From: Escherichia phage BF9
DNA length: 44,963 nt
Reading direction: 5' to 3' (one strand)
Sequence record: NC_073083.1
A program made the position numbers and the translations under genes. Below the pieces are notes generated by a model. It saw only the letters and a program-made list of their open reading frames with translations, ran no database searches and was not told the origin of the DNA. Positions 9,122-43,900 of the stretch are shown one piece after another. Each line of letters starts with the position of its first letter. Positions within the stretch are counted from its first letter, which is position 1.

Positions 9122-11764
9122 TCATCGTTTGTAAAGTACACCACCCGGTTTCGTCGCCTTCACGATCTCGGCCTTGACCGACTCGGTGATTTGCTTCCCG
9201 AACGCCTGCGCGGTGCGCGGGTCCGGTCCGCTAACACTGGTATCCGTCTTACCGGTCCCCATGTTAACGTTGGTCGTCACGACCATACCACCGCCTGCGC
9301 CAGACGCGGCAACGCCCAGTTTCCCGTCGGGCCCGCGCTTCAGTGGCATGATGGCTTCGGGTCCGGCCTCACCCATCAATCCTGCGCCCTTAGCGAACGC
9401 CTGGACGCCATAACTGAAAAAGGTAGGCTGGCTTACCACCTGCCCCGAATAGGCCGCGAGGTTGCCCCCTGCGTACGCTCCGCCGTCCGCATTCTTAGTG
9501 AGGCCCGAGAAGATCGCGCCGAACAATCCGTTTTTGCCGCCGTCGCCACCGAAAGCGCTAACAATGGACTTGAACGCCTGCGATGTAGCTAGCTTGATTA
9601 ATTCGCTCAGGATGGACTTAACCATATCCTTTGCGTTCAGCTTGCCAGTCTCGAAAAACTCGTTCATAGAGTCCTGCATTGCGCTGAACGTGAATTTAGT
9701 GAGTGACGTCATCTGCGTGTATCCGTTACCCATTTCGTCAACGCTATCCTTAAGCCCGCGGCTGAAGCCATCCCATAACGAGGCATTAGCACCGGTCTGT
9801 GCTTCCTGCACTTCGCGCAGCTTAGACACCGCCAGGTCAATATCGGTATCGTTAGCGCCAACACGACGAAGGCGGTCAATTAGCTGCAATTCTTCGCGCA
9901 GGTTAGCCGCTTCGCGAGTGGAAAGTGCATAGCCCGCGGCGGTGGCTTTTAGCTCTGCGTTCTGGTTCTTAACGAAGGCATCGATCTGCGCGTGCGCCTT
10001 GACCTGCTTCTCTTTCGCGTCCAGCAATTTGGCTTCTTCGACGATCTGCTCGCGGACTTCCTTCACGCGTCCAAATTCGACTAATTGCTGCTTCTCTGCT
10101 GCCGTGAGTGCCCTTTCCTTGCTAGCTGCGATTAACTGCTCATTATCGGCAATCAGCTTGTTAAGGGCCGCTTGCGCGCGCTGTGTGCGGGTCTGAGTTG
10201 AGGAGTTGGCCTCAATCTGCTTGCCTGATTCCCGAAGCTGTGCCAGTTCGCTCCGTGCGACCTCCAGCATTTTCATGCCGGCATCCACGCGAACAGCCGC
10301 TGCCTTCTTCGGTGCCGGGTCTTTGTAGCGCTCGTTGACCTGCTTCACCGCCTCAGCCAGTTCCTTCTCGTCGATCACGCCGCGCTTATTCAGCAAATTG
10401 AGGCGGGCGATCTCGTCGGCGCGCTTCTTAGCGTTGGTGGCGTATTCCTTCTCGAACGCGGCGCGGTCACGGGCGGTGCGGTTGGCCTCCTCGTTCGCCT
10501 TCGCGGATTCGTCCGCGGCGCGGGCGTTGTCTCGCTCTGCACGGTTTCGCAGGGTGAGCGATGCCACTACTTTTTCCTGTGCGACCAGTTCGCTGTAAAG
10601 CATGTTAATACGTGCTTTCTGCGCCTCTGTCATTACCCCACCGGCAGCGTTGACCGCTTTCATCTCGGCATAGTAAGCCGTTGTCAGACGCTGTAAGGAC
10701 TCTCGCGCCTTCATCTCGGACTCATTTGAGGACTGCGCGCGGCCCACATCCAGGATTGCATCCCACATAGATTTCGCTGCCGATGTGACGACGTTCATCG
10801 ACCGCTCGAGCGTTCCCATGTTGGACTTAATATCGTTGGTCATGGTGGTGAACGACGCCGCGGCTGTTTTATTAGCCAGCGCCACCGCTTCAGTCTCACG
10901 ACCCATACCCACCAGGGATTGTACCTGCTGGATCTGCGCTTCGTTTACGACGTGATACTTATCAGCCAATGCTCGCAAGCCACCTACCGGGTCTGTAGAC
11001 AGCTTCGCCACCGCCGCGACCACATCCTCGATCGGCTGGCTGGACACCTTCGCAAAGTCATTCACTACCTTCGCCAGTGCGCCGAAGTCACCACCCGCTT
11101 TCACACCCGCCGCCGCCAGCGCCTGGATTGTGTCACGCGTCTTGCGGAACGACCCGCCCATGCGCTCGGCGTTCTCGGATAGTACCAGGATCTGGTTTGC
11201 CGTCAGGCCGGAAATGTTACCGGAAAGTGCCAGCGTCTTGTTAAGCGCGGCGACCTGGTTCTCTGCGCGGGACGTAATTGCCACGCCCACGCCTAACGTT
11301 GCCGTTACGGCGGCAAGGCCGATCCCTACTGGGCCGAGGAAGCCCGCAACATAACGCAGCGTGTTACCCAATCCACCGAACGCCCCAGTTAGCTGCGGTA
11401 ACTGCTGAAGCATGACGCGGTGAACAGGCATCCCCATCTCAAGCGTAACTGCGATATCCTGTAATTGGAATGCGGCGTTACGCGAGGCAAAGCCCAGGTT
11501 TTTGGTCGACATGCCTAACCTGTTGGCAAGTCGCTCCTGTTTCGTCATGCCATCGGCGGCGCGCTGCGATTCAGTCGCCAGCTTCTCCATTCCGCCCGCG
11601 GCGTCACTCGTCACCTTTTTGGATTTGCCGAGTGTGTCGTTTAATTTCTTAACCTTGTTTTCTGTGTTCTCGGATTTCTGTGCGAATGAATCAAGCACAG
11701 TATTCGCCGTTCTGATTTGTGCAACATCCGCCTTTAGCGTGATGCCTGCTGCTTGATCTGCCAT
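9122..11764 (-). CDS. Tail tape measure protein (880 aa)
   Basis: Long, Ala/Gln-rich, predicted coiled-coil protein with Gly-rich hydrophobic segments, downstream of the G/GT chaperone. Confidence 0.9.
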   Translation of the reverse strand: MADQAAGITLKADVAQIRTANTVLDSFAQKSENTENKVKKLNDTLGKSKKVTSDAAGGMEKLATESQRAADGMTKQERLANRLGMSTKNLGFASRNAAFQLQDIAVTLEMGMPVHRVMLQQLPQLTGAFGGLGNTLRYVAGFLGPVGIGLAAVTATLGVGVAITSRAENQVAALNKTLALSGNISGLTANQILVLSENAERMGGSFRKTRDTIQALAAAGVKAGGDFGALAKVVNDFAKVSSQPIEDVVAAVAKLSTDPVGGLRALADKYHVVNEAQIQQVQSLVGMGRETEAVALANKTAAASFTTMTNDIKSNMGTLERSMNVVTSAAKSMWDAILDVGRAQSSNESEMKARESLQRLTTAYYAEMKAVNAAGGVMTEAQKARINMLYSELVAQEKVVASLTLRNRAERDNARAADESAKANEEANRTARDRAAFEKEYATNAKKRADEIARLNLLNKRGVIDEKELAEAVKQVNERYKDPAPKKAAAVRVDAGMKMLEVARSELAQLRESGKQIEANSSTQTRTQRAQAALNKLIADNEQLIAASKERALTAAEKQQLVEFGRVKEVREQIVEEAKLLDAKEKQVKAHAQIDAFVKNQNAELKATAAGYALSTREAANLREELQLIDRLRRVGANDTDIDLAVSKLREVQEAQTGANASLWDGFSRGLKDSVDEMGNGYTQMTSLTKFTFSAMQDSMNEFFETGKLNAKDMVKSILSELIKLATSQAFKSIVSAFGGDGGKNGLFGAIFSGLTKNADGGAYAGGNLAAYSGQVVSQPTFFSYGVQAFAKGAGLMGEAGPEAIMPLKRGPDGKLGVAASGAGGGMVVTTNVNMGTGKTDTSVSGPDPRTAQAFGKQITESVKAEIVKATKPGGVLYKR

Positions 11765-11827
11765 TATGCAGTCCCCTTTTTTATGCAGTTGCCGGTTGAC
11801 ATTGTATCAGCGAATTTAAAACAAACC

Positions 11828-12150
11828 TTATTCAGTCTCAGACGAGGGGGGCCACTGACCCCCGTCTAGTCTGAAAGACTGGGCTTTGTCCCGCTTGTCC
11901 CGATCGGCTGAAAACCGCGGCAGCACTGGCGGGGACGGGGCGCCGTCCCGCTTTGTCCCGCATCTTGTTTGTCCCGCTTTTTGTCCCGTTTGTTTTATGC
12001 ACGAAATCCGAATAGGTATGCACATTTGTGGGGTGGGACAAAACGGGACGTCCCGATTGTCCCGCTTTTAGATTATGCAATGGAAGTGAGTAGGTATGCA
12101 CATTTGTGGGGTGGGACAAAACGGGACATCCCGTTTTGTCCCGCTTCATT
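11828..12150. repeat. Iteron region A: about 67 bp hairpin leader followed by 10 or more GTCCCG(C) heptamers in both orientations, including a roughly 74 bp tandem duplication
   Basis: Leader ttattcagtctcagacgaggggggccactgacccccgtctagtctgaaagactggg, then ttgtcccgc copies and gggacaaaacgggac inverted pairs. Near-identical leader at 28280. Non-coding in my reading; track ORFs across it are repeat-driven. Confidence 0.8.
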
Positions 12151-12840
12151 ATGCGGGGTTCTGCTGCGCCATCTCATCAAGCGCGATTCGTTCCATTAGC
12201 TTGATATCTTTAAACGCGCGCTGTTCGTTTTCGATACCGTGCATCTTAAATAACCACTCCAGCACGCCGTAGTCGATGCCGTATGCGCCACCAAATCCGG
12301 TGCGCCATTGCGTGGCGCAATCTGTGAAGACTGCGACTATCTTCGCGTTGTCAGGCCATAGCGCAACAGGCGGACAAACATCTTCGGGGGCCGCGCCCCA
12401 TAAACTTGCGGCTAAATCTTCAGAGGGTGGCGGCGGGCCATAAAAGCGTCGCGCCGCCTCAATTAGTTTTTTTCACGCAACCCCATCAGTTCGAGATAGT
12501 ACGACGTGTGGAACACACCGAACGCGCGTGGATAGTTGACCACCAGGCGGCGGACGTTCTCCGCGTTAAATTCGTCCGGCAGATTCCAGCCTTCTGCGAC
12601 GTGCATGATGGCCTCGACCATAACGTTAAAGCCGTCAGGGTCATTGTCGTCATATTCCGATAGCTTTCGTTCAGTTTCCTGCATGGTTTGCGAAAATTCG
12701 TCGATCGGGCGGTGGCGGACGGTAAACGTCATCTTGCCCGGTTCGTTCTCACCAGGGCGCGGGATCTCAATCGGCAGCTTAAAGGTTGGTTTAGGGTCAA
12801 GTGTGAAGAGTGGTGCTTTAGCCATTGTAGTATTCTCCAA
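12149..12840 (-). CDS. Tail assembly chaperone GT-like fusion made by programmed -1 ribosomal frameshift
   Basis: Slippery heptamer A_AAA_AAC (plus-strand T7 run at 12467..12473) at the end of the G-like ORF. The -1 frame continues open to a TAA at 12151..12149 and encodes ...DNAKIVAVFTDCATQWRTGFGGAYGIDYGVLEWLFKMHGIEN... Confidence 0.6.
12463..12840 (-). CDS. Tail assembly chaperone (gpG-like), 125 aa
   Basis: Track ORF between the major tail and tape measure genes, ending in the slippery site. Confidence 0.75.
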   Translation of the reverse strand: MENTTMAKAPLFTLDPKPTFKLPIEIPRPGENEPGKMTFTVRHRPIDEFSQTMQETERKLSEYDDNDPDGFNVMVEAIMHVAEGWNLPDEFNAENVRRLVVNYPRAFGVFHTSYYLELMGLREKN

Positions 12841-12842
12841 TA

Positions 12843-12868
12843 AAAAAGGGGCCGTGCTGGCCCCATAT
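12843..12868 (-). terminator. Intrinsic terminator after the major tail protein gene
   Basis: Minus strand reads GGGGCCAGCACGGCCCC followed by TTTTTT. Confidence 0.6.
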
Positions 12869-12894
12869 TAACACTCGCTAATTAAGCGACCAAA

Positions 12895-13620
12895 TCAAGA
12901 CAATGCCTCGACCAGATCCTTACGGTAGATAACCATATCAGACTGCATGGTCAGAGTGGATTGTACTGTTTCCACGTTGTTTACTTCAGCGGACGGAATC
13001 TTCTGGAAAGATACCTTAGCCGGGTAAATACGGATCTCACCTTTGCCGCTTGCCGCTGCCGGGTTAGTGAACTTGATCACAGTGGTTTTCTGTGTGCCGT
13101 CCAGGTCTTCCAGGATTGGGCGGATCGGGTCTTCTTCGTCGTGGGTGAAGGTGTAAGTCTGAACAAACGGGTTTTTCGTGGTGTTCAGACTGATTGCGGT
13201 GTTCACCTGCAACGGCTGGAAGGTAGTAGTCTGCTGGTCGCCACCAGACACGGCAACGTTAGTAATGAAAGGGAAGTCGATAAAGCTCGACACCTTCACC
13301 ACTTCGCCCGGAGTGCCTGCCCCAAACGCGCCAGTAGGATATTTGGTCACGTCCGAGGTGTCGAAGCGCGCCAGCGTAACGTCGTTGGTAGCTACTTTAC
13401 CCACGATGAACGCTCGGTTCAGCGCACGGACCCACGGAGTTTTAGTGAACATTACCACATCGCCTACTTGCAGGCCATGAGAAGCCGCGCAGGTGATAAC
13501 GCAACCTTGCGTAAGATCAGAGATAGACGCTGCGGCGTTGGTTGCTGCCGTAACAGCGATGCCGCTACCCAGTACGGACCCAATCTGGACGCTGGACCCG
13601 TTAGGAAGTTGATAACCCAT
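12895..13620 (-). CDS. Major tail (tube) protein
   Basis: 241 aa, immediately upstream of the chaperone/tape-measure genes, followed by a terminator; RBS present. Confidence 0.75.
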   Translation of the reverse strand: MGYQLPNGSSVQIGSVLGSGIAVTAATNAAASISDLTQGCVITCAASHGLQVGDVVMFTKTPWVRALNRAFIVGKVATNDVTLARFDTSDVTKYPTGAFGAGTPGEVVKVSSFIDFPFITNVAVSGGDQQTTTFQPLQVNTAISLNTTKNPFVQTYTFTHDEEDPIRPILEDLDGTQKTTVIKFTNPAAASGKGEIRIYPAKVSFQKIPSAEVNNVETVQSTLTMQSDMVIYRKDLVEALS

Positions 13621-28279: not shown

Positions 28280-28445
28280 TTATTCAGTCTCAGACGAGGG
28301 GGGCCACTGACCCCCGTCTAGTCTGAAAGACTGGGGTTTGTCCCGCCTGTCCCGCTCCTCTGGAAGCCGCGCCATCCGGGGCGGGACTGGGGTGCTGTCC
28401 CGCTTTGTCCCGCCCCCGGTCTGTCCCGCTTTCTGTCCCGCTTAC
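28280..28445. repeat. Iteron region B: same hairpin leader as region A (one mismatch) followed by 6 or more TGTCCCGC copies and one inverted copy
   Basis: ttattcagtctcagacgaggggggccactgacccccgtctagtctgaaagactggggtttgtcccgcctgtcccgc...ctgtcccgctttctgtcccgc. Lies about 160 bp 3' of the primase-helicase stop; three more GCAACCAAT motifs occupy 28480..28600. Confidence 0.8.
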
Positions 28446-43450: not shown

Positions 43451-43900
43451 ATGAAAGCATACGAATACTGCAAAAACGCCGCCACCACTATGGAACAGCG
43501 CGGAAAAGAAAACGGCTATGGCAACGCGAAAGAAGAACGCATCGCTAAACAAATCGCTGCCGTGTTTAACGCGCTTACCGGTCGCGACCTGACCGAGCAA
43601 GAAGCCTGGACCTTCTTGATTTGCCTGAAGCTGGTACGCCAGCACCGTAAGCACCGGGAAGACAATATCGTCGACCTGGTAGCGTATGCGGCCTTGCTGG
43701 GCGAGTCGTACATGACCGTACACGACGAGATTCAGATCGATACAACGGCAGCGCAATACGATAGACTTAAATACGGCGGCGCATTCCCCCCGGGCAAGAC
43801 TACGGTCGTGCTCACCGGCGAAGACGGATCCAAAATCCTCATGACGCCGGAAGACTTCCGCAACATGGAAAAAACACTGGTACGTAGCGCACTGAAATAA
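43451..43900 (+). CDS. Hypothetical protein (149 aa)
   Basis: Track ORF downstream of the promoter-like motif pair. Confidence 0.45.
   Translation: MKAYEYCKNAATTMEQRGKENGYGNAKEERIAKQIAAVFNALTGRDLTEQEAWTFLICLKLVRQHRKHREDNIVDLVAYAALLGESYMTVHDEIQIDTTAAQYDRLKYGGAFPPGKTTVVLTGEDGSKILMTPEDFRNMEKTLVRSALK

Follow-up and report, generated by a model that had tools for sequence, protein, structure and literature searches.

In long-tailed phages the G/GT frameshift is textbook knowledge (review PMC5009743), and the locus described here raises the question of whether the short tail assembly chaperone of Escherichia phage BF9 is extended in the same way, by a programmed −1 frameshift at its very end that leads into a second, T-like reading frame. 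The window analysed is the whole stretch of 44,963 nucleotides in sequence record NC_073083.1, and all coordinates refer to it. A 2-kb query around the site matches 157 phage records at 80-95% identity, nearly all of them Escherichia phages of the genus Dhillonvirus, with HK578, SO-1, JL1 and the BASEL phages among the Dhillonvirus matches. Judged by these sequence matches, the source phage is a Dhillonvirus, an HK578/SO-1-like coliphage.

The genes around the site are on the minus strand and run in the order tail terminator (PF13554), tail tube, G, T frame, repeat region and tape measure. The tail tube (major tail) protein gene (12895..13620, minus strand, 241 aa) matches PF08813 with E = 5e-32, and its product is presumed to be the partner of the T domain. 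The tape measure protein gene (9122..11764, minus strand, 880 aa) carries PF06791 and PF09718, and its product is presumed to be the client of both G and GT. The G/T pair, flanked by PF08813 upstream and by PF06791 and PF09718 downstream, thus has the position of the lambda-type pair. Between the tail tube gene and G, a pattern scan picks out a terminator-like hairpin, GGGGCCAGCACGGCCCC followed by T6 (12848..12864, minus strand), and a terminator is annotated at the equivalent position in HK639. This hairpin probably lowers transcription into G/T and the later genes, and probably sets a high ratio of tube protein to chaperone. It also overlaps the sequence leading up to the ribosome binding site of G.

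G, the short tail assembly (tape measure) chaperone, is a protein of 120 aa encoded at 12463..12825 on the minus strand, with its stop codon TAA at 12465..12463. The original prediction gave the open reading frame as 12463..12840 and ending in GLREKN; the end of the frame stands, and position 12840 proves to be a mechanically assigned TTG within the T-tail of the terminator-like hairpin. The likely start, judged from the sequence, is the ATG at 12825, which is preceded by the Shine-Dalgarno sequence GGAG at 12838..12835 and gives a gene of 363 nt; relatives annotate an identical 363-nt CDS for G. The protein matches Pfam family PF08748 (Phage_TAC_4) over profile positions 1-124 of 124 with 84.5 bits (cut-off 21.1), and it matches phrog_569 with E = 1e-40. 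An AlphaFold2 model of G has a pLDDT of 92.4, and comparison of this model with solved chaperone structures returned no significant neighbour; the fold of the solved tail assembly chaperones is described as a “spiral” (Pell et al. 2013, as cited in PMC5313236). Among 52 G homologues drawn from 50%-identity clusters, the C-terminal residues are KN in 31/52 and GN in 5/52.

The 0 frame of G ends CGT GAA AAA AAC TAA, where GAA occupies 12474..12472, AAA 12471..12469, AAC 12468..12466 and TAA the three positions that follow. The slippery heptamer A_AAA_AAC (12466..12472, minus strand) lies in the correct X_XXY_YYZ phase against the codons GAA|AAA|AAC, and on the plus strand its six A's belong to a run of seven T at 12467..12473, the run given in the original prediction. 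A TGA (12475..12473) immediately 5' of the A run closes the −1 frame, while the TAA that abuts the heptamer on its 3' side ends the 0 frame. The two frames are therefore open together only across AAA AAA C, which means that a productive −1 shift must occur on the heptamer. The sequence AAAAAAC is depleted in the window, with 2 copies on both strands of the 45 kb against 8.0 ± 2.9 expected from shuffles. The other copy (43869..43875, plus strand) lies near the end of a plus-strand ORF (43451..43900), is out of X_XXY_YYZ phase and was dropped as a candidate. A search for an upstream Shine-Dalgarno-like element (GGAGG- or AGGA-like, about 10 nt 5' of the heptamer) found no motif shared by the compared relatives; the sole recurring feature upstream is a conserved Gly codon (GGG, GGC or GGA).

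From CTA (12466) onward the −1 frame has 105 sense codons, or 107 when the two AAA codons that follow the TGA are counted as well. This frame, T (12149..12466, minus strand), reads LIEAARRFYGPPPP...QQNPA and ends at TAA 12151..12149. It reaches as far as predicted, its translation contains the expected peptides DNAKIVAVFTDCATQWR and GIDYGVLEWLFKMHGIEN, and it also includes the stretch LIEAARRFYGPPPPSEDLAASLWGAAPEDVCPPVALWPDNAK. T matches the full profile of Pfam family PF08809 (DUF1799), positions 1-80 of 80, with 74.7 bits (cut-off 26) and E = 7e-21. The initial description of the locus as a G-like chaperone with a T-like extension is borne out by these two family matches and by the tube and tape measure genes on either side. 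The T domain is 34-47% identical in T1, HK639 and phiES15. An AlphaFold2 model of T, which was modelled separately from G, has a pLDDT of 92.6. In a set of 11 equal-length Dhillonvirus sequences, the first, second and third codon positions of the T frame hold 8, 4 and 37 variable sites, and the T frame is under purifying selection.

Searches with the conceptual G-T fusion place both halves in one protein family. The fusion spans positions 1-212 of the 213-position profile phrog_17368 with E = 1.5e-32, and this end-to-end match means that full-length G-T proteins already exist in phage annotation. NCBIfam returned no family match for the fusion. A word-indexed protein search with the same query gave two matches, both to G only, and is uninformative on fusions. 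An exhaustive HMMER search returned G-only matches that end at query residue 119-120, T-only matches and one two-domain protein. The last, 206 aa long, holds Phage_TAC_4 and DUF1799 in a single frame and is without about 10 residues around the junction. Either an assembly indel produced it, or the frameshift was lost in a natural fusion. A joint MAFFT alignment of G-only, T-only and fusion proteins misplaced the T sequences.

The junction itself is conserved far beyond the immediate relatives. In a scan of IMG/VR, the T match starts at query residue 1 in 80/80 loci; the heptamer at the T start is AAAAAAC in 79/80 and GGGAAAC in 1/80, with a stop codon adjoining it in all. In T1, a Tls-like phage, HK639, phiES15 and three metagenomic contigs (Logan), the T domains are 34-70% identical to the query, and their homology starts at a Leu codon made up of the last base of AAC and the first two bases of the stop. 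In the same seven sequences G ends in A_AAA_AAC followed by TAA or TGA, and the preceding codon differs (GAA, GCA or GTA). Xp10, Acinetobacter phage Silvergun and a Ralstonia phage carry G_GGA_AAC and TGA at the junction, so that one canonical slippery heptamer has been swapped for another in place, as selection for slippage predicts. The junction reads CAA AAG TAA in Pectobacterium phage Sabo and GCA AAA GTT TAA in Klebsiella phage Snook. Xanthomonas phage Xp10 (1412..1715) is a further case of extra material behind T: the next annotated feature after T, about 390 nt downstream, is an HNH endonuclease gene (17R), and the tape measure gene lies outside the stretch covered. The original prediction called the G/GT frameshift a conserved feature and proposed comparing its position with that in related phages. 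It is conserved here, with T homology following a canonical heptamer in all the IMG/VR relatives and in distant phages, and its position is the same in T1, HK639, phiES15, Xp10 and others. The arrangement of heptamer and frames is not due to chance, given the rarity of AAAAAAC, the DUF1799 match and the recurrence of the junction in every relative examined.

Taken with the protein families, the anatomy of the junction, its conservation and the selection on the T frame make it very probable that G and GT are made by programmed ribosomal −1 frameshifting on A_AAA_AAC. Two other routes to a T product have to be weighed. In the first, the fusion would arise by transcriptional slippage: RNA polymerase would add an extra A within the A7 run, and an unshifted ribosome would then read through into T. 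The slip site is indeed a homopolymeric A7, and slippage on A/T runs is a known route to −1-frame products (review PMC5009743). However, the relatives with GGGAAAC share the junction, and this heptamer, with its three A's, cannot support polymerase slippage; the conserved adjacent stop and the downstream hairpin also suit a ribosomal mechanism. Efficient slippage in E. coli also generally takes a run longer than seven A's, which counts against this route. We consider it very unlikely as the main source of the fusion, to which it could make a minor contribution.

In the second, T would be a separate gene with a start of its own, entered either by reinitiation at an AUU that overlaps the G stop (TAATT) or at an internal GTG. 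Gene callers frequently call T-only ORFs, and gp16 of SO-1 and gp16 of HK578 are annotated as CDSs in their own right, each 315 nt long and with the final base of the G stop as its first base. Against this, the ATT is found there only in the Dhillonvirus group and is replaced by ATC, AGG, AAA or ATA in heptamer-bearing relatives, and no Shine-Dalgarno sequence precedes it. The first ATG, GTG or TTG of the T frame is codon 68 in the window and codon 5, 8, 18, 32, 34 or 42 in relatives; as its position varies in this way, there is no conserved start. Residues 2-9 of T, encoded directly 3' of the slip site, are helical in the model (block pLDDT 92), so the domain requires sequence that no start codon precedes, and the T-only starts that have been called are scattered and lose this conserved N-terminal helix. 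The heptamer, finally, is either unchanged or swapped for a canonical one, which an independent start would not need. Separate initiation is thus even less likely than polymerase slippage, and we are confident that T is expressed only as the C-terminal half of a 225-aa GT fusion. The idea that T is open merely by chance, or is a relic that is no longer translated, is effectively refuted by the DUF1799 match, the codon-position bias, the identity to T1, HK639 and phiES15 and the confident structural model.

Under ribosomal frameshifting, the majority of ribosomes would terminate at the G stop and release the 120-aa G. A minority would slip back one base on A_AAA_AAC, the Lys-tRNA moving from AAA to AAA and the Asn-tRNA from AAC to AAA, and would go on to read CTA ATT GAG and the rest of the 105 codons in the −1 frame. 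The resulting 225-aa GT would run through ...LREKN directly into the first residues of T. With a tandem slip of both tRNAs, the Asn is decoded before the slip and the junction becomes ...REK-N-LIEAARR, not ...REKK-LIE. The slip would be aided by the abutting stop codon and by a G+C-rich hairpin that begins 7 nt downstream.

This candidate stimulatory hairpin (12429..12458, minus strand), identified by folding, has an outer stem in which GGCGGCG (12458..12452) pairs with CGCCGCC (12435..12429), and its distance from the heptamer is within the 5-9 nt spacing of the dnaX type. The 40 nt after the heptamer fold at -17.1 kcal/mol with z = -2.1, a value equalled by 5/200 shuffles; a 101-nt segment around the site gave no significant fold (z = +0.23). 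At the equivalent position the T1-like phages have hairpins in which GGCGGTTT is paired with AAACCGCC, with z about -5.4. Between Dhillonvirus and the T1-like clade, two stem pairs are changed on both sides, from C-G to U-A and from G-C to U-A. Across 29 diverse junctions the lower four stem pairs are mostly retained, with pair types CG/UA/UG and UA/GC/CG. The covariation score over these 29 junctions, whose sequences are related to each other, is 0.298 against 0.121 in shuffles (0/500 reach 0.298) and above all slid controls, a signal that is confounded by the conserved Ala-Ala and Pro-Pro that the hairpin arms also encode. Within Dhillonvirus, third positions vary in 1/14 of the first 14 T codons and in 36/91 of those that follow (Fisher p = 0.018). 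RNAalifold found no family-wide consensus structure over the 29 diverse junctions, the hairpins of the phiES15 and HK639 groups are weak, and an Rfam search over 11700-12900 returned nothing above noise. On comparison of these sequences, the hairpin is probable in the Dhillonvirus clade, with partial covariation of its lower four pairs, and our claim is confined to the clade level.

The second candidate stimulator, the adjacent 0-frame stop, adjoins the heptamer in 80/80 of the IMG/VR loci and, outside that set, in most of the phages compared, and this conserved adjacency suggests that the stop probably raises the rate of slipping through slow termination. In E. coli, A_AAA_AAC reportedly shifts far less readily than A_AAA_AAG (review PMC5009743), and the efficiency of the shift may therefore be low.

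The best-known counterpart is the G/GT pair of phage lambda (Levin, Hendrix & Casjens 1993; Xu, Hendrix & Duda 2004, as cited in PMC5313236 and described in PMC5009743). Both pairs lie between the major tail and tape measure genes and yield a short product and a −1 fusion, and in both the downstream frame lacks a start of its own and the slip site is at the extreme end of G. There is no detectable sequence similarity between the two, however, and the families represented here are Phage_TAC_4 and DUF1799. The slip site of lambda is G_GGA_AAG and stands a few codons before the stop, whereas A_AAA_AAC abuts the stop in the present locus and is followed by a downstream hairpin. A 384-bp repeat region also separates T from the tape measure gene here, in place of the direct junction found in lambda. 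The lambda-type heptamer G_GGA_AAG is listed as highly shift-prone in E. coli (review PMC5009743). By analogy with lambda, the shared G part would bind the tape measure protein and T (DUF1799) would recruit the tail tube protein, with the tube then polymerising around the tape measure and both G and GT being absent from the finished virion. We infer from lambda and related phages that the GT fusion would be needed for tail assembly.

Closer parallels, which share both the protein families and the architecture, are provided by the chaperones of Snook, Scapp, Solomon and Loki. The record of Klebsiella phage Snook holds a joined CDS named “tape measure chaperone, frameshift product”, although its junction differs from the AAAAAAC of the query. 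The T model matches the C-terminal part of “tape measure chaperones” of 210-236 aa from Serratia phage Scapp and Klebsiella phage Solomon (BFVD, E = 6e-6 to 4e-5), and the same frameshift has been predicted for gp12/gp13 of Acinetobacter phage Loki (PMC5313236). In T1, the Tls-like phages and Loki, AAAAAAC lies directly against the stop, as it does here, and the identity of the T domain to that of T1-like and related “tape measure chaperone” phages is 23-40%. The site also recalls E. coli dnaX (A_AAA_AAG), with which it shares an A-rich heptamer, a hairpin a few nucleotides downstream and the use of a single gene for two products made at a fixed ratio. Unlike dnaX, it has AAC (Asn-tRNA) rather than AAG as the last codon, it lacks a convincing upstream Shine-Dalgarno-like element, and its shift lengthens the protein where that of dnaX truncates it.

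The region that follows T lies outside the frameshift. It is a non-coding repeat region of 384 bp between T and the tape measure gene (11765..12148, minus strand), well inside the tail operon, and it begins right at the fusion stop as predicted for the iteron region, with the first CGGGACAA at 12143..12136. Seven copies of this motif are found in the region, and 11 in the whole window against 1.8 expected. The region also contains a 64-nt unit in two copies (11995-12058 and 12073-12136) and, immediately behind the stop codon of T, an inverted repeat of 14 nt without mismatches (12113-12126 / 12129-12142), at the position of which a rho-independent terminator is annotated in HK578. It corresponds to “region A” of the SO-1 record, noted there as similar to a “region B”. 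Plausible roles for the repeat region are the binding of a phage regulator to its arrayed sites, or the control of tape measure expression by a terminator/antiterminator. Spurious ORFs are called within it, for example 11838..12149 (103 aa). A second array, with at least 6 copies of GCGGGACA(G/A) motifs, lies on the minus strand at about 28320..28445 and is probably the SO-1 region B. The stretch ccccagtctttcagactagacgggggtcagtggcccccctcgtctgagact that follows this array seems to be repeated at the end of region A that is nearer to the tape measure gene, judging by the translation of the ORF 11828..12025, from which the recurrence was read.

The treatment of T in existing records is uneven. 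In the SO-1 and HK578 records it begins at an ATT overlapping the stop codon of G; those of SECphi18, Opt212 and EE09 hold only fragments of 31-51 aa (CDSs of 32 to 39 codons in the T frame); that of Kenya-K19 holds a 76-aa piece; and in Pandora71 and UDS3lw T is uncalled. None of the Dhillonvirus records inspected annotates the frameshift, product names in 60 sampled records, from a listing without join flags, indicate no frameshift product, and in the published literature we found neither a statement of the frameshift for Dhillonvirus or HK578 nor experimental data on the fusion in Dhillonvirus. Names derived from PHROG are misleading, as both G and T are called “tail length tape measure protein”. 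With T fragmented, started at ATT or omitted, the 225-aa GT is missing from protein and proteomics search databases. In the proteome of Dhillonvirus EE09 (PMC10673088), only the chaperone CDS is reported, and the whole T frame was not in the database searched; the raw data are deposited as PXD046455 (PRIDE). For CDS21, “tape measure chaperone”, a table in that paper shows a length of 103 aa and a mass of 11.0 kDa, and the EE09 record OR756193 (15735..16097) and the supplement of the paper give the same CDS as 363 nt and 120 aa. The length of 103 aa is that of a spurious ORF in the repeat region (EE09 CDS18). The 103-aa entry was rejected as evidence for T, given the 120 aa of the record and the supplement.

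The frameshift described here is already known in kind and adds no new biology to the G/GT paradigm; its main value is in the correction of annotation. The site nevertheless illustrates clearly how a slippery heptamer can lie directly against a stop codon, and in E. coli it could serve to measure the separate shares of stop codon and hairpin in −1 frameshifting on A_AAA_AAC. A broader proposal, which we put forward tentatively and regard as rather doubtful, is that the Phage_TAC_4/DUF1799 family shares a stereotyped signal, a heptamer (A_AAA_AAC or G_GGA_AAC) set against a stop codon with a hairpin at 7 nt, in which the stop is the main stimulator. If this were true, slow termination at the stop would make an otherwise weak heptamer work at the low rate that is needed. 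It would also justify correcting well over a hundred records of Dhillonvirus and related phages that split or omit T, and the family would offer a clean natural model for stop-codon-assisted −1 frameshifting.
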